Part shown: in pieces, positions 6,996 through 60,314 of the stretch
Layout of the letters: each line of letters opens with the position of its first letter
Numbering within the stretch: the stretch's first letter is position 1
Source: Escherichia phage ECD7
DNA length: 64,000 nt
Sequence record: NC_041936.1
Direction: 5' to 3' (one strand)
The notes under the pieces: model-generated
What the model was told of the DNA's origin: nothing
Database searches by the model: none
The model's input: only the letters and a program-made list of their open reading frames with translations
Translations under genes and position numbers: made by a program

Positions 6996-8210
6996 TTAAG
7001 CAGGATGCGTTTCACGAATGCGTAGAACTCGCTCTAACGTATCTCGGTCCAGTTTATGTAACTCTTTGGAATGATACATGAAACCATTGCGAGATTCCAT
7101 GCAAGTGCAATCACTATATTTTTCTTCCGCTGCCGCGATTGTCTCCAGATCTTTGGCGTACTTGCTGGTTGAATAAACTTCTCGATCACGCCACTCTAAC
7201 CCAGACTCATTGAATTTAACAATCTCGTCAAATACCCACCATCCAATGTAGATAAATGAAGTTTTGCGCCACGGGATCGGGTGTACGTAACGAAACATTT
7301 TAACAACTTCCATTGAACATTTTCGGCTTGTACTTGCTGCAACTTCTACTGTTTCATCTTCGATCTGTTGATATAGTTTAGCAACACACCAGAATTTGGC
7401 TGTGTCATCGTAAGTAGCACTCTCTTTGAACAGATGACCGTCTGGAGTGATAGAAAATCCTTCCAGTGCTTCGCCGACCTCACTACCGATCAGAGTCGGT
7501 GACATTTGCCCTTCGCGCTGCAAATACCAGTTATATTTGATCGTCAAATTAGGCATACCGCTAGAATCGCCTACAATGTCCTCTGACACAACATAATTAA
7601 GTGATATCTCATTACCTAGTGCCACGGTCTTTGATTCCACCACATCCTGATCTACGTTCATTGTTGCCAGCATTATTTTAGTCGATGCGCTAGCGGCTGA
7701 ATCTTCCGACTCGCCCCACACTTTTACAGTATACACGCCGTTTTTATCTGCTGTAAATTCTTGGATCGTAATATCCTTTTTTGTGTCTATAACGTCATCG
7801 CCCTTACTCCAACTATAATGTAGTTCATAGTTGTCTGCTGGAGTCTTCCCACCAGAAAAATTTACTGTTGCATGTAATTCTACGTCTTTTTGTGATGATA
7901 CGTAGAAATGCTGCGGTTCGGTGATATTTACGATTAATTCAGCTTCTTCCATGAGGAAAACTTCAGATTCTACTGATGTCATCGTATCGGTATCTTGTAC
8001 CGTTACTTTATAGCTACCCGCATTTTCACTTGTTGCGTCTGCTACAGTTAGCGTAGCTGTGCTATTTTCATGCGGTTGGTCGTCTTTTGTCCATGTATAT
8101 GTCAAATTGCTGGGTAATGGTTCGTCACCCGCTACAGTCGCCGTTAAGGTGAAACCATCTCCAGCAAGAAAACATCTTTTGTTAGATTGTATTGATACTG
8201 TGAAAGCCAT
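6996..8210 (-). CDS. hoc: highly immunogenic outer capsid protein Hoc
   Basis: 404 aa; Ig-like N-terminal repeats; C-terminus YVHPIPWRKTSFIYIGWWVFDEI...ESRNGFMYHSKEL matches recalled T4 Hoc capsid-binding domain. Confidence 0.85.
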   Translation of the reverse strand: MAFTVSIQSNKRCFLAGDGFTLTATVAGDEPLPSNLTYTWTKDDQPHENSTATLTVADATSENAGSYKVTVQDTDTMTSVESEVFLMEEAELIVNITEPQHFYVSSQKDVELHATVNFSGGKTPADNYELHYSWSKGDDVIDTKKDITIQEFTADKNGVYTVKVWGESEDSAASASTKIMLATMNVDQDVVESKTVALGNEISLNYVVSEDIVGDSSGMPNLTIKYNWYLQREGQMSPTLIGSEVGEALEGFSITPDGHLFKESATYDDTAKFWCVAKLYQQIEDETVEVAASTSRKCSMEVVKMFRYVHPIPWRKTSFIYIGWWVFDEIVKFNESGLEWRDREVYSTSKYAKDLETIAAAEEKYSDCTCMESRNGFMYHSKELHKLDRDTLERVLRIRETHPA

Positions 8211-8305
8211 ATAAAGCCACTCCCATCGAAAATCCGAATTTAATTAATTGAAATAGTTGATTGTCATCAACCAGATAACCATTGCGAGATTCCAATACAT
8301 GAGTA

Positions 8306-8470
8306 TTAGAATAGTGATGCAACGAGGCCGAAATAATATCGATCTCGTCTGGGTATTTGTTCTGCTATAAAGTCTGCTGTACTAACAACAATCTTTAACA
8401 GAAGTGGATGACCAACGGAGCCATAAACCGGACCTTCTGTTTGATGTAATACATTGATTTTGTTAGACAT
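8306..8470 (-). CDS. small hypothetical protein (54 aa)
   Basis: ATG preceded by GGGAGA RBS; below the ORF-track cutoff. Confidence 0.3.
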   Translation of the reverse strand: MSNKINVLHQTEGPVYGSVGHPLLLKIVVSTADFIAEQIPRRDRYYFGLVASLF

Positions 8471-13711: not shown

Positions 13712-14798
13712 TGTCTCAATAAAACTTTATCAGGATTATGAGGCATTTCTAAATCATCGCTTTATAGAATTGGGTGCTACCTTTGTTACAATGACTCTGC
13801 GTGATTCTATTCGTGGGGTGAACGAAGGATTGTTGCAATTCTATGATAATAAGGCGATGCATACAAAATTAAACGGGAGAGAGATCATTCAGATTTCGCT
13901 ATCAACTGCTAATACAGATGAAGTGTTTAACCGAATCTATGGGATCTCTCATAGTAATGTAACAATTGACCAAAAATCCGACAACATTTTAACATTCCAG
14001 TTAAAGAGCTATCACGAAACACTAAACCTTAAATTTTCCCGCTCATTGACAAATAACGCTGTTAATAACGTAACTAGCATGATTGATGCCATCTATAAGG
14101 AAGTTCCTTTATGGAAACCTACTATAAAGGGTGATAACGTTGTTATTCCTCGTTGTCCGTGGGTTAGTACCATAAATGACTATATGGATTTTGTGAGGGC
14201 ATACGGGCAAAGCGTAGAAACCGAGTCTTTCGTGTATTGCTGGGAAGATTTTGATGGTATAACGATCGCTGGACACGATACAATATTAAAAAATGAGCCA
14301 ATACCAGCTATAATCTGTGAGCCTAGACTCATGGGGCAATTTATTGATATGTCGCCTAATCTGATGGTTTTTAATTTCGAGTGGCAGACTAAGAGCAATG
14401 CTAAAGTTAAAAATTCATTTAGCAATGTGACATACACAACTATTGATTTTGTTACTAAGCAGTATAATAAAATTATTGTTGGTAATGGGGATAATATTGC
14501 ACACTTTGCTCATGGTGGAGCTTATGGTGATTTAACTTATAAGAATGCGTTTTTGGAAGGGTCTAAACTCGCCACAATAGAACAATATGATTCATATGCT
14601 ACCGCCGTGTGTCACGGTAATTTTTCGTTGCGCCCCGGTATGGTTATTCGATTCTTTGATGAGAAGCAACAAGCACGCAATGATTTTATTGTTGACGAAG
14701 TGGTGCATGAAATTAGCCGAGAGCAATCATTAACTCACCTGTATATGATCGGTAACAGCGAAGAATTACAGGAAGTCAAATTTGAAGGTAAGATATAA
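13689..14798 (+). CDS. 27: baseplate hub subunit gp27
   Basis: 369 aa; N-terminus resembles recalled T4 gp27 (PNVSIKLY...MTLRDS...EGLLQFYD). Confidence 0.85.
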   Translation: MQRTGFPNVSIKLYQDYEAFLNHRFIELGATFVTMTLRDSIRGVNEGLLQFYDNKAMHTKLNGREIIQISLSTANTDEVFNRIYGISHSNVTIDQKSDNILTFQLKSYHETLNLKFSRSLTNNAVNNVTSMIDAIYKEVPLWKPTIKGDNVVIPRCPWVSTINDYMDFVRAYGQSVETESFVYCWEDFDGITIAGHDTILKNEPIPAIICEPRLMGQFIDMSPNLMVFNFEWQTKSNAKVKNSFSNVTYTTIDFVTKQYNKIIVGNGDNIAHFAHGGAYGDLTYKNAFLEGSKLATIEQYDSYATAVCHGNFSLRPGMVIRFFDEKQQARNDFIVDEVVHEISREQSLTHLYMIGNSEELQEVKFEGKI

Positions 14799-15316
14799 TG
14801 ACAGAAACTAAACCTATGTTAAAATTTGTTGTTCCTGTAAAAAAATTAGAGATAAACGGGAAACATATCAAGATCCCAAAAATGGGGATTAAGCAACATC
14901 GATTATTAAAAGATGTTCGTAGCTGTGATGAAACATTAAAGATTCTTCTTGATTCAATCTGTCCTGGGTTAAACGCTGCCGAGTCTGAATTGGTTATGCT
15001 TAACCTTTGTGCGTTTAATGGTAAGTGTCTGGAAGAAAAAGACGGTCTTAAGCTGTCTGATGTGTATATTTGTACAGAGACTGAATTTACTTTAAATGGT
15101 AAAGTCTTTAAATTTAAAAATCCAATGTATACTTCTGACCCCATTATCGATGACGCTGATTTCTTGAGTCATCATTATCACGATCCTAGTGTAGACTTCC
15201 ATGATTTCCCAGCTTTTATTATGGATTGGGCTACAGGATTAAGAAAAACTATTGCACTGGATACACCGGAAGGTACTATCTATGGTGGAATTAACATATT
15301 GGATCGCCTATCATGA
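14798..15316 (+). CDS. 28: baseplate distal hub subunit gp28
   Basis: 172 aa, coupled to gp27 and gp29; size and position match T4. Confidence 0.75.
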   Translation: MTETKPMLKFVVPVKKLEINGKHIKIPKMGIKQHRLLKDVRSCDETLKILLDSICPGLNAAESELVMLNLCAFNGKCLEEKDGLKLSDVYICTETEFTLNGKVFKFKNPMYTSDPIIDDADFLSHHYHDPSVDFHDFPAFIMDWATGLRKTIALDTPEGTIYGGINILDRLS

Positions 15317-24953: not shown

Positions 24954-24982
24954 ATTGTAGGGGAGTTATCCTCCCCTGTCAA
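24954..24982 (-). promoter_or_regulatory. sigma70-like early promoter with palindromic spacer
   Basis: minus TTGACA - 17 nt (GGGGAGGATAACTCCCC) - TACAAT. Confidence 0.55.
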
Positions 24983-24996
24983 CACTTTTTATAAAA

Positions 24997-25197: not shown

Positions 25198-25227
25198 ATT
25201 ATAGGGGATCTCCCGATCCCCGTCAAC
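25198..25227 (-). promoter_or_regulatory. sigma70-like early promoter with palindromic spacer
   Basis: minus TTGACG - GGGATCGGGAGATCCCC - TATAAT. Confidence 0.6.
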
Positions 25228-25240
25228 AACTTTTTTAAAA

Positions 25241-29600: not shown

Positions 29601-29630
29601 AGTATAGGGGATCTCCCGATCCCCTGTCAA
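29601..29630 (-). promoter_or_regulatory. sigma70-like early promoter with palindromic spacer
   Basis: minus TTGACA - GGGGATCGGGAGATCCCC - TATACT. Confidence 0.55.
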
Positions 29631-46201: not shown

Positions 46202-46527
46202 CCTTTTTGTTCCATGAAAAGCGGTGCTGTTTCTTCTTTCAGTTTAATAACTAGCGCGGAAACTTCATCAAGAAAATCTTTTTCCATATGAGCAAGCATT
46301 GATTTAGAATCTTTGATGACTTTCAAAGAATATTCACTTAGATTTCCTTTTCCTAACAATAATGCAGGATACACACTATGTGGGATCTCGATTTCATGAT
46401 ATTCGCTCATAGTATAATATTTGTGAATTTTTAAATCTATATTTCTTCGTTGTACGTCTACATCAGCAATGACATACAGAAGTTCAATTTTATCACTTTT
46501 CTGGGAAAGGGTAGCATTCAAAAACAT
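46198..46527 (-). CDS. hypothetical protein (109 aa)
   Basis: ORF behind the promoter at 46557-46584. Confidence 0.45.
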   Translation of the reverse strand: MFLNATLSQKSDKIELLYVIADVDVQRRNIDLKIHKYYTMSEYHEIEIPHSVYPALLLGKGNLSEYSLKVIKDSKSMLAHMEKDFLDEVSALVIKLKEETAPLFMEQKG

Positions 46528-46556
46528 TGTTAATCCTCCGTTGTTTCGATGCTTGT

Positions 46557-46584
46557 ATTATACAACCTCATCTCAGCATGTCAA
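46557..46584 (-). promoter_or_regulatory. sigma70-like promoter
   Basis: minus TTGACA - 16 nt - TATAAT. Confidence 0.5.
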
Positions 46585-46610
46585 CACCTTTTTCATAAAA
46601 TTTTAGGCAA

Positions 46611-46636
46611 TAAAAAAGCCTCCCCGAAGGGAGGCT
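46611..46636 (-). terminator. rho-independent terminator downstream of gene 32
   Basis: AGCCTCCC-TTCG-GGGAGGCT hairpin followed by a U-run on minus. Confidence 0.7.
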
Positions 46637-46646
46637 GTAAAATTCA

Positions 46647-47593
46647 TTACATCGCTAACAGAGAGTCCAGGTCATCCAGATCAGAAGCGGAGGAAGTACC
46701 GCCACCCAGGTCCAGAGATGCCATCAGATCATCAGCGGAAGAATCTGACGCTGTGCTAGTTGCGGTAGTACCAGCGTCGAATGCATTCATCTGTGCATCG
46801 AAATCATCAAGCTGGCTGTTAATCGCTGCCGCAGCACCAGAAGCCGCAGTACCAGCTACCAGCTTACGCCTTTAACTTTCTTAAATTTAGCATCCAGTTC
46901 CTCGAAAGATTTAAACTGGTCTTTTGCTACGATAACATCAATATCTACCATGTTTTCGAACAGATATTTCTGGAATGCTTCATCTTCGATGTTCGGAATC
47001 GCTGATTGCTGCATGAAACGTGAATCATCGTAGTTCAGGAATTTATCTACTTTCTTAGCTTTCAGAAGGAAGTTAGCGCCTTCGAACGGACATACGATGT
47101 TTACAGGTTTTTCGCCCAATTCCGTGTTTACGTTGCTCATTGCCAGAATCTTGTCATAAATTTTCTTACCGAAGCGGAATTTAAATACTTTACCTTCGTT
47201 TTCCGGCGCTTTCGGATCTTTCATGACCAGAATGTTTGCGAAGTAAGAAGATTTACGCTTAACATCTTGATATTCTTTATTGTTGGTGTTGTACAGGTCA
47301 TTTTCGCTAATGTATTTGCACACAGGGCAAGAATCAAAATCACCGTGGGTGCTAGGGCAGTTTTCCCAATAATACTTACCATTTACTTTGAAAGAATGGT
47401 TTACAAGGTTGATGATCGGTAAACCGTCTTCGGTGCGTGCCGGAAGAAAACGAATCACCGCTTCACCGTTACCCGCCGCGTCAGTTTTAATCTTCCACTC
47501 TTTCGGATCTTCTTTGGAGAAGCCGTTGCTACCTTTCAGTGCTGCCAGTTGAGCTTGCAGTTTGGAAGAATCTTGACGACGAAAAATGTTCAT
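46647..47593 (-). CDS. 32: ssDNA-binding protein gp32; reading frame interrupted near 46856-46871 (apparent frameshift)
   Basis: N-terminal/core part (47593-46856) matches recalled T4 gp32 ([53 protein letters not shown]); the acidic C-terminal tail is encoded in the -1 frame down to 46647; start placed at the second Met with AAAGAGG RBS. Confidence 0.8.
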
Positions 47594-47635
47594 AATTATA
47601 CCTCTTTTATACATTAACTATTAATTTGCTAGATT

Positions 47636-47663
47636 ATTATACAGATTTAAATTTACTTGTCAA
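47636..47663 (-). promoter_or_regulatory. sigma70-like promoter upstream of gene 32
   Basis: minus TTGACA - 16 nt - TATAAT, overlapping the 3' end of gene 59. Confidence 0.5.
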
Positions 47664-48340
47664 CTATTTGTTTCGGCTTTTAATTGAGATATTTCTTTAC
47701 ACTCTTTAACTACTTTAACAAATAATGCTCTTGCTTTTGCGGCGTCAATAACAAGTAGTTTCTTGTACGCCTTCATTTTAACACTATAAGTTTGCCAAAT
47801 CAAGTCTTTGGCTACCTTGTCGTGTTCGTCGATTATATTTAGAAAGCTATCTAACAACATAAACGACTCAAACGATATAATCCGATTTTGCAGTAGTTTA
47901 AAAATACCGCTTGTTTCGGTTGCGGGATTATATGTAATTAGCTCTTTAAGAGTAACCCCGCGTTTCTCTGAGAAGTATACCAGACTTTTAATGTCATCGT
48001 CAAATCGTGTTGCAGCATCAGTGATCTTACCGATATACTCCATGTAAAATCCGTATGCGTCAACATCAGTGATTTCACCTACCCATGCATCGGTATTAGC
48101 TACCAGATTGCTTAGGAATAGGAAGTATAATTCTCTTAGATTGTACTTTTCCGCTAATTTTGCGAAATAATACTTATCTCTGCGTTTATTGAATGCGGCA
48201 TCAGACAACCGCATCCTCCAATTGTATTTTACGCAATCATAACGCCCGTTCATGTGAGCTTTCATCATGCAATATAACATATACACAGATTTAGCATTAA
48301 TTCGCATATCTGGATCTGGAGGAAGACGGTTTCTGATCAT
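47660..48340 (-). CDS. 59: helicase loader gp59
   Basis: 226 aa; KSVYMLYCMMKAHMNGRYDCVKYNWRMRLSDAAFNKRRDKYYF colinear with recalled T4 gp59. Confidence 0.85.
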   Translation of the reverse strand: MIRNRLPPDPDMRINAKSVYMLYCMMKAHMNGRYDCVKYNWRMRLSDAAFNKRRDKYYFAKLAEKYNLRELYFLFLSNLVANTDAWVGEITDVDAYGFYMEYIGKITDAATRFDDDIKSLVYFSEKRGVTLKELITYNPATETSGIFKLLQNRIISFESFMLLDSFLNIIDEHDKVAKDLIWQTYSVKMKAYKKLLVIDAAKARALFVKVVKECKEISQLKAETNS

Positions 48341-57330: not shown

Positions 57331-57371
57331 TAAATAATATTATTCTAATAACCGTTTAAGGATTTTATAAA

Positions 57372-60314
57372 ATGGCAGATTTAAGCAGAATCCAATTTAA
57401 ACGCACTAGCACTAAAGGTCGTAAACCTGATGCTAGTACGATGAATCCGGGGGAATTGGCAATCAACCTTGCGGATCAATATCTTCTTACTAAAAATGAT
57501 TCCGGTGCTATTATCAATTTAAGTTGTCCTCCGGTGTATGACCGCGATGTTACAATGGCGGGTAAGGTTAAAGGTAATAATTATATCTTAAGTAAAACCG
57601 CCAACTATTTGGAAGACCAGACAGCGAGAGATCTTAACTACTTTGGCGCTTTCTGTACCAATGGTCTTGATGGTCTTCTCGAACTCACGCTAAACGTTCC
57701 TCACTCTTCCGGTGTCCAACATGGTCGAGGATTTACTTTCCAGTATGGGCACACTGGATCGCGCGTAGAAACTTATGGATATAATGCACAAGGACAAAAA
57801 GCATTTAGCTATAAAATGTATCACGAAGGTGATAAACCAACTCCAGGAGAATTGAACGTTTATAGCAAACAAGAAGTTGACCGTATGTTTGTTAAAACCG
57901 TTAAACTTGCTACAGTTCCTGTTGATATAGTTGACGGTTATTTTAAATTAGCGACTGCGATGATTCCGCAAAACGGTCGTAGCGTATTTTTCCGTATTCA
58001 TGGTGGTAACGGATATAACGTTACTGCATACGATCAAGTTGATATTGTAGAAATTGTTATTCGCAGTGGAAATAATCGTCCTAAAGGTGTTAACGTTATT
58101 GCATACCGCCGAAATACAAACAAAGCATTTGATGTTTTGGCTGTTAATACTTCTGGTGATAACTATGATATCTACGTGAAATATCAGCGTTACACTGATA
58201 ACGTTATTGTTGAATTTGGTAAAAGTGTTGATGTTGATCTGGTAGTCCATGACGTTCCAGATTTTGTTGTTGATCGTCCTGTTGGCGATAATGTTATTGG
58301 CGGTCGCGCGGTAACTCTTTTCAACACCGAAAACAAACGAGGTGTGTTGAGTTTTGACGACAACACACAAAATAGTTATGATATTGTTCACTTGAGTAAT
58401 GATAGGGGTACTGGACGGAAATATATTCGTAAATTCCGTAGCAACTATAACGAAATGATCTGGCATGAGACGGTTCAAGGTTCTACTTATCGACTCGCCA
58501 CGGGTAGTACAGATGCCCAGGAGATTCTATCCGTTGAATCTAGTAGCTCTATTGCTGGGACTCATAAAGGTAATATTCTTTCTGGTCGAATGATGTTGGG
58601 TGGCGGTAGTAATGTTATTACCTTGCGGCGTCCTGCTGGTCAATCCAACCATATTACGTTTCAAGATAATCGGACTGGATCTATTACCCGTCAAGGGTGG
58701 ATCGGTTATGGTAATGCTGATACTAACGTTTTTGAATGGTATAGTGATGTAGGTGGTACTTCTATTCGTCACCACATCGACGGACAGATCGAACTTGCAA
58801 CCGGTAACACAAAACGAGTTTATACTAACGCTCAATTCATCTCAATGAATAGCAACGCCTACCGTATGCTATACGGTAATTATGGTGCATTCTGGCGTAA
58901 TGACGGCGTTAAAGTTTATCTTCTTTCTACTGCCGAAAATGATAAATTGGGTGGATGGAATAGCTATCGTCCATTCATTTATGATTTAACTTCCGGTAAC
59001 GTTCAATTAGGCGGTGATGGTAACGAAGATGCATTAACGTTAGAACTTGCTTCTCGTGCCGCTCGCTTTAGTAATGACGTTTACATTAAGAAAGGGCATT
59101 TGACTTTCGACGCTGGGCGCTCTGGATCTCGCGATTACTTCCGGTTTAACCATTGGGGTGATAGCAATAATGCCCGTGATAACATTCTATATCTAGAAGA
59201 CAGTAAAGGTCGACATTTTAGCACCGAGCGTAATATGGCAACGGGTGCATTAAAAGCCGACTTCTTAGGCGATCTTGAAGTTGGTGGTAAGTTGACATGG
59301 GGTAAAAATACAGCTACATCTAGCTTTAATATTCGTGCATGGGGTAGTGATTCTCGTAAGCAAGTATTAGAATGCGCGGATGAAAGTGGTTGGCATTGGT
59401 ATACCCAACGTGCTGGCGGTCCAGGTACTGAATTAATCGATTTTGCCATTAATGGTACTGTTAAGCCTAAAGCAATTCACACTGGCGGTAATATTACCCT
59501 GAACGGTCCTGATATTGAGTTTAAACGCGCTGGCAATAAGCACATCTGGTTTAGAGATCCAGACGGTTTAGAGTTAGGCTTGATGTACTGCGATGATGCT
59601 GGTGCTATTCGATTCCGTGGTCAGAAACAAGCCCAAGCGTGGAAATTTGCAGATAAAATGATCCAGTTGGAATCTGGTACTGTAACCGGTGGCGGTAATG
59701 GCCTGATTCGTGGTGAAGTTGCTGGCGGTAGTTGGGCTAGCTGGCGTGACCGTGCTGCTGGCCTTATGGTTGGGTGTCCTCAATCCACCAACTCGGCACA
59801 TAACGTATGGAAAGCGACGCATTGGGGTAAATATCACATTGCAGCAATGGCTGTACATGTTCCTGATGGTACTATTACCAATGCTTTAGCTCGCCTAAAC
59901 GTTCATGACGCCAACTTTGACTTTAGCGCATCCGGTGACTTGTCGGCAGGTCGTAACGGTTCGTTTAACGATGTGTATATTCGTTCTGATGCTCGCCTTA
60001 AAATCAATAAGGAAGAGTATAAGGAGAATGCCACCGATAAAGTTAATCGCTTGACGGTATACACCTATGACAAGGTTAAATCTTTAACCGACCGTACTGT
60101 CATTGCTCATGAAGTTGGTATTATTGCTCAGGATCTTGAAAAAGAATTGCCGGAAGCCGTAACAACTTCTAAGATCGGCGACCCAGATAATCCAGAAGAG
60201 ATCTTAACAATTTCTAACTCTGCTGTCAACGCTCTTTTAATTAAGGCGTTTCAGGAAATGAGCAAAGAATTGAAAGCCGTTAAAGCTGAACTAGCAGAAC
60301 TTAAAAAGAATTAA
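57372..60314 (+). CDS. 37: long tail fibre distal subunit gp37 with C-terminal intramolecular chaperone domain
   Basis: 980 aa; N-terminal MADL and fibre repeat motifs; C-terminal domain begins at SDARLK. Confidence 0.75.
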   Translation: MADLSRIQFKRTSTKGRKPDASTMNPGELAINLADQYLLTKNDSGAIINLSCPPVYDRDVTMAGKVKGNNYILSKTANYLEDQTARDLNYFGAFCTNGLDGLLELTLNVPHSSGVQHGRGFTFQYGHTGSRVETYGYNAQGQKAFSYKMYHEGDKPTPGELNVYSKQEVDRMFVKTVKLATVPVDIVDGYFKLATAMIPQNGRSVFFRIHGGNGYNVTAYDQVDIVEIVIRSGNNRPKGVNVIAYRRNTNKAFDVLAVNTSGDNYDIYVKYQRYTDNVIVEFGKSVDVDLVVHDVPDFVVDRPVGDNVIGGRAVTLFNTENKRGVLSFDDNTQNSYDIVHLSNDRGTGRKYIRKFRSNYNEMIWHETVQGSTYRLATGSTDAQEILSVESSSSIAGTHKGNILSGRMMLGGGSNVITLRRPAGQSNHITFQDNRTGSITRQGWIGYGNADTNVFEWYSDVGGTSIRHHIDGQIELATGNTKRVYTNAQFISMNSNAYRMLYGNYGAFWRNDGVKVYLLSTAENDKLGGWNSYRPFIYDLTSGNVQLGGDGNEDALTLELASRAARFSNDVYIKKGHLTFDAGRSGSRDYFRFNHWGDSNNARDNILYLEDSKGRHFSTERNMATGALKADFLGDLEVGGKLTWGKNTATSSFNIRAWGSDSRKQVLECADESGWHWYTQRAGGPGTELIDFAINGTVKPKAIHTGGNITLNGPDIEFKRAGNKHIWFRDPDGLELGLMYCDDAGAIRFRGQKQAQAWKFADKMIQLESGTVTGGGNGLIRGEVAGGSWASWRDRAAGLMVGCPQSTNSAHNVWKATHWGKYHIAAMAVHVPDGTITNALARLNVHDANFDFSASGDLSAGRNGSFNDVYIRSDARLKINKEEYKENATDKVNRLTVYTYDKVKSLTDRTVIAHEVGIIAQDLEKELPEAVTTSKIGDPDNPEEILTISNSAVNALLIKAFQEMSKELKAVKAELAELKKN
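59985..60311 (+). other. intramolecular chaperone (peptidase S74-like) autoproteolytic domain at the gp37 C-terminus
   Basis: SDARLKINKE ... VGIIAQDLEKELPEAV ... LLIKAFQEM ... coiled-coil tail; pattern recalled from endosialidase/T5 fibre chaperone domains. Confidence 0.6.

Follow-up and report, generated by a model that had tools for sequence, protein, structure and literature searches.

A one-base frame break between the core and the acidic tail of gene 32 in the genome deposited for Escherichia phage ECD7, probably an error of the record

In the genome of Escherichia phage ECD7 as deposited, the reading frame of gene 32, the gene for the phage's single-stranded DNA-binding protein (SSB), gp32, is broken between the DNA-binding core and the acidic C-terminal domain. 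Is the break an error in the record, a genuine deletion in the phage, or a site at which translation is recoded? We examined it within a window of 64,000 nucleotides (NC_041936.1; GenBank KY683735.1). ECD7 belongs to Krischvirus and is an RB49-like, T4-type coliphage; its gene 32 can be compared both with that of T4 and with those of close relatives.

As written in the window, gene 32 lies on the minus strand (46856..47593) and comprises 245 codons and a stop, running in frame 0 from the ATG at 47593-47591 to a TAG at 46858-46856. The 245-residue product spans a putative N-terminal cooperativity region and the whole of the OB-fold/Zn core; its residue 245, a tryptophan, is a product of the frameshift. 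The protein has been deposited in this form (ASJ80327.1 / YP_009602199.1). The acidic tail is encoded in the -1 frame. A TAA at 46874-46872 closes this frame, which from 46871 on is open until it terminates with a TAA at 46649-46647 (46647..46871, minus strand; 74 codons plus the TAA). The tail proper begins at 46861 and extends downstream for 71 residues, 12 of which are aspartate or glutamate and none lysine or arginine. Because the TAA at 46874-46872 and the TAG at 46858-46856 bound the overlap of the two frames, the change of frame can take place only within 46856-46871, an overlap of just 16 nt. The original prediction had the frame from 47593 stopping at this TAG, the acidic tail in the -1 frame from 46871 to 46647, and the switch confined to these 16 nt. 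The first was reproduced exactly on the window sequence, the second in its coordinates and its peptide strings, and the third from the stop positions in both frames.

The product is a gp32 by several measures. It matches the PF08804 profile at 172.8 bits (cut-off 26.8) over residues 41-241 and profile positions 1-208 of 208, and once the frame is repaired (see below), residues 3-313 match T4 gp32 (8GME) with a phmmer E of 4e-111. The four zinc-site residues, His64, Cys77, Cys87, and Cys90 in T4 numbering (PMC3012046), are all identical in the alignment. The N-terminus aligns to T4 residues 1-21, and the LAST motif K-R-K-S-T of T4 (PMC12893549) is here R-R-Q-D-S, a sequence common to all relatives. 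Gene order (dsbA, 33, 59, 32, then frd, td, nrdA) is alike in the window and the annotated relatives. The locus thus resembles that of T4 in its His/Cys/Cys/Cys zinc ligands, OB-fold core, acidic tail, and placement of the gene between gene 59 and frd; it differs in that core and acidic tail stand in different frames and in that the tail is only loosely similar to T4's.

By alignment, the break maps to about T4 residue 242, past the crystallised core (22-239) and ahead of the acidic domain, the limits of which are given as 240-301 or 254-301, varying by author (PMC3012046, PMC5892887, PMC10484735). It takes away the entire A/C-domain. In T4 gp32, it is on this domain that gp59, gp61, RNase H, UvsX, UvsY, and Dda dock (PMC3012046, PMC3016280). 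A paper title cited elsewhere (Hurley et al. 1993) states that assembly of the T4 replication machine requires it.

Comparison with gene 32 of the closest relatives, which had been proposed as a check, locates the lesion to a single base. We compared 24 loci, namely those of phages Brandy, G2248, JK32, and phiS and 20 more reached via the neighbouring gp59/dsbA proteins; they come from isolate genomes and ENA/NCBI metagenome contigs, and removal of two duplicates left 22 independent relatives. In each of these 22 the frame is unbroken, and gp32 is a single open reading frame (ORF) of 313-324 aa in which core and acidic domain form one polypeptide. This is not so in the window as written. The junction is in-frame and 36 nt long in 24 of 24 loci (22 independent) and 35 nt long in the window. 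A 90% identity cluster gives a similar picture: among 15 listed of its 25 members, ECD7 contributes the sole short protein, the other 14 being 310-324 aa. A contig index queried for an independent copy of ECD7 gave no match for the truncated product or for two ECD7-type neighbours. One of the loci (L015; ENA ERZ27258095 contig k141_83816) carries a gene 32 that is only about 80% identical to those of the window and Brandy.

The window is short of exactly one base in the alignment with Brandy, G2248, JK32, and phiS, reading GTA AGC TGG TAG where they read GTA AGC CTG GTA GCT. The lesion, at a single C (46862..46862, minus strand), is the loss of 1 nt where the codons for Ser244 and Leu245 meet; two bases are present there in all relatives, in the form AGC-CTG, AGT-CTG, or TCT-ATG, at a Ser/Leu or Ser/Met boundary. 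The break had been proposed to be a one-base indel parting the gp32 core from its acidic domain, and against the 22 independent relatives it is indeed a deletion of 1 nt. The deletion produces a perfect tandem 7-mer, AGCTGGT AGCTGGT (46851..46864, minus strand), in the place of which Brandy-type relatives have the imperfect repeat AGCCTGGT AGCTGGT.

Insertion of one C in silico gives an ORF of 315 codons, rejoins core and acidic domain in one polypeptide, and yields a protein identical to Brandy gp32. Residues 1-244 of the window product and its 71-residue tail are each 100% identical to the corresponding parts of Brandy gp32 (residues 1-244 and 245-315), so the two-frame gp32 is not a chance arrangement. 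The window and Brandy are about 97% identical overall and 99.7% identical in the gene 32 region. The repaired gene differs from Brandy's by two synonymous substitutions in the core and by none across the 71 tail codons; with no nucleotide difference in the tail, this part of the gene has therefore not decayed. Across the relatives, the last ~30 residues of the tail are nearly invariant.

Signals flanking the gene also speak to its extent. A Shine-Dalgarno-like AAGAGG (47601..47606, minus strand) lies 7 nt 5' of the gene 32 ATG, and upstream of the gene is a sigma-70-type promoter-like site (TTGACA/16 nt/TATAAT; 47636..47663, minus strand) that matches the consensus at 12 of 12 positions. An intrinsic-terminator-like hairpin of eight pairs, six of them GC, with a T-run (46617..46636, minus strand), stands 11 nt past the stop of the tail frame and carries a terminator annotation in G2248; no other minus-strand terminator-like site was found within 46450-47750. 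Since this promoter and the only minus-strand terminator in that interval bracket the full-length gene, the transcription unit is that of full-length gene 32. A second perfect (12/12) sigma-70 consensus promoter (TTGACA, 16 nt, TATAAT) is found at 46557-46584 on the minus strand, directly upstream of the next gene downstream of gene 32.

Could ribosomes bridge the two frames? Programmed recoding, in which full-length gp32 comes from a ribosomal shift of -1 (or +2), or from a hop, within 46856-46871 while the zero-frame stop also gives a truncated form, would accommodate two features of the site: the frames overlap by those 16 nt only, and the shift window has a UAG stop immediately after it. 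A stop codon in the A-site can stimulate frameshifting. The overlap contains no slippery heptamer of the form X XXY YYZ, nor does gene 32 elsewhere; the gene also has no A/T run of six or more and no G/C run of five or more, so that a site for transcriptional slippage is absent as well. On hand inspection, the P-site codons AAA, GGC, GUA, AGC, and UGG all re-pair poorly in the -1 frame, and a 7-nt hop between the AGC-UGG repeats would lead into the +1 frame and to a stop after 10 codons. A stimulatory downstream RNA structure was not detected: the minimum free energy is -35.2 kcal/mol, that of shuffled sequences averages -33.0 (z = -0.71), and 52 of 200 shuffled sequences fold at least as well. 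The two-frame layout is conserved in none of the 22 independent relatives. Genes with programmed -1 frameshifts, such as E. coli dnaX (tau/gamma) and the phage tail chaperone (G/GT), likewise have overlapping frames, a short zero-frame product, and a possible longer one; unlike the window, they have a slippery heptamer, stimulatory elements, and conservation among relatives, three features of which none is found here. Programmed recoding is thus not supported, because heptamer, homopolymer, RNA structure, and any relative with this layout are all missing, and we regard it as highly improbable.

A split gene, in which a start inside the gene yields the acidic tail as a small polypeptide of its own that works in trans, is also conceivable from the reading frames, as the ATG at 46790 opens an ORF of 47 codons in the tail frame. 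No Shine-Dalgarno-like sequence precedes this ATG (upstream GATGATTTCGATGCACAG), there is no promoter-like site inside gene 32 on the minus strand, and the ORF would miss the first 27 residues of the tail. We consider separate translation of the tail unlikely because its only ATG has no ribosome-binding site and would omit those residues. Moreover, this organisation is seen in no relative, and a free acidic peptide would be expected to compete with recruitment to single-stranded DNA, not to support it. Taken together, we give the split gene almost no credence.

Comparison of the window with its relatives revealed several differences at other loci. The gene for the homolog of gp28, a baseplate hub protein (14798-15316, plus strand), shows a one-base frame difference from Brandy (L005:16062-16430) near window position 15094. 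The window ORF, of 172 aa, matches 43 other Krischvirus records at 99% or more, so this frame break belongs to the Brandy record and not to the window; a frameshift in the window's own gp28 was accordingly rejected. At 8251-8470 (minus strand; junction at about 8360-8364), about 2.3 kb of sequence present in Brandy (L005:7310-9632) and G2248 is missing. The missing stretch encodes the main part of an 846-aa protein that carries several immunoglobulin-like domains (Pfam Ig_3, Ig_2, I-set). Of this protein the window retains about the first 34 and the last 37 codons, in different frames; the neighbouring 404-aa Ig/PKD paralogue (6999-8210) is intact.

The distal long-tail-fibre region (57372-60311, plus strand) is the most divergent part of the window, at 73-82% protein identity. 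It forms one reading frame, open from stop to stop (57360-60314), and corresponds to a single 1014-aa gene in G2248 and to two overlapping annotated genes, of 545 and 448 aa, in Brandy (L006:25641-28570). A GC-rich palindrome, GGGGATC...GATCCCC followed by GTCAACAACTTTTT, recurs between the genes of a small-gene cluster (at about 24965-24985, 25205-25230, and 29610-29630), and many small indels between the window and Brandy gather around its copies.

Against about 95 Brandy coding sequences and all G2248 ORFs, no other frame-broken gene was found in the window. A generally error-prone assembly was therefore rejected as an account of the gene 32 break.

Two readings are left for closer weighing: that the C is missing only from the sequence record, or that it is missing from the DNA that was sequenced. 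In the latter case the deletion would be a very recent slippage or misalignment event, either fixed in the lineage of the sequenced plaque or prevailing in a mixed lysate. The window sequence as given reads so. That a perfect tandem AGCTGGT AGCTGGT has arisen out of an imperfect repeat is a plausible signature of replication slippage or templated misalignment, and the intact state of the other genes in the window means that random error is not pervasive. The identity of the tail is equally compatible with a very recent event and with an artefact. All of the PF08804 core is preserved in the truncated product, and T4 tolerates a small C-terminal deletion, delta-PR201, which takes out five residues (292-296; PMC5892887).

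The protein expected from a real deletion has a counterpart in T4. gp32*I (G32P*I) is a proteolytic fragment of T4 gp32 without the C-domain (residues 254-301), and the window product, residues 1-244 plus W, likewise consists of the N-domain and core with no acidic domain (PMC5892887, PMC12893549). Such a gp32*I-like product would bind single-stranded DNA cooperatively, would destabilise duplexes more strongly, and would not dock partner proteins. The parallel ends there: gp32*I is an in vitro cleavage product and is not genome-encoded, and no T4-like phage among the relatives examined encodes it.

Several observations make a real deletion unlikely. It would remove a tail that is strongly conserved in all relatives and that, in T4, serves as the interaction hub for replisome and recombination proteins. 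No other phage or metagenome contig in the collections searched carries it: the deleted junction had no match in viral, metagenome, or genome contig collections. ECD7 is a therapeutic phage used at 1e9 to 4e10 pfu/mL (PMC10223927, PMC7277081), and stocks of 4e10 pfu/mL are hard to square with a crippled replisome.

The break is probably a single-base error in the deposited ECD7 genome, one C having been under-called in a CC dinucleotide, as judged from comparison of the sequences. This reading is favoured because the lesion is unique to one record and the tail behind it is untouched, because the lost domain is strongly conserved and is a hub of the T4 replisome and yet ECD7 grows well, and because promoter and terminator bracket the full-length gene. 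It is favoured further because the neighbouring Brandy record is itself frame-broken by one isolated base, in the gp28 homolog. The two cases are alike in that each consists of an isolated 1-nt indel in one conserved gene, with perfectly conserved flanks and with other relatives intact, and in both the error is a presumed one. Counting against an error is the CC dinucleotide, which is not a classic long-homopolymer error site. We infer that the phage DNA has the C which the record lacks. The original prediction had offered sequencing error, genuine frameshift, and recoding without choosing among them; of these, the error is now favoured by context, the genuine frameshift stands as its main rival, and recoding is not supported, with no slippery site, homopolymer, or stimulatory structure and an arrangement found in none of the relatives.

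If the record is in error, the phage itself would carry an ordinary 315-codon gene 32. Its gp32 would then be built like that of T4, with an N-terminal segment for cooperativity, an OB-fold core that contains Zn and binds single-stranded DNA, and an acidic, disordered tail by which replication and recombination proteins are recruited. The consequence would be curatorial: a phage used in patients has a truncated SSB annotated under KY683735 / YP_009602199.1, this truncated SSB is already in UniRef, and the GenBank/RefSeq entry needs correction or a flag.

There is no new mechanism in the gene 32 break of ECD7. It is very unlikely that ECD7 is truly deleted and nevertheless reaches 1e10 pfu/mL, in which case either a Krischvirus replisome works without the gp32 acidic domain or enough full-length protein comes from a low-signal -1/+2 event of an unconventional kind at AGC-UGG-UAG. 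Should the deletion prove real, ECD7 would serve as an experiment of nature on whether a T4-type SSB can do without its acidic C-terminal domain in vivo, a matter relevant to replisome assembly.
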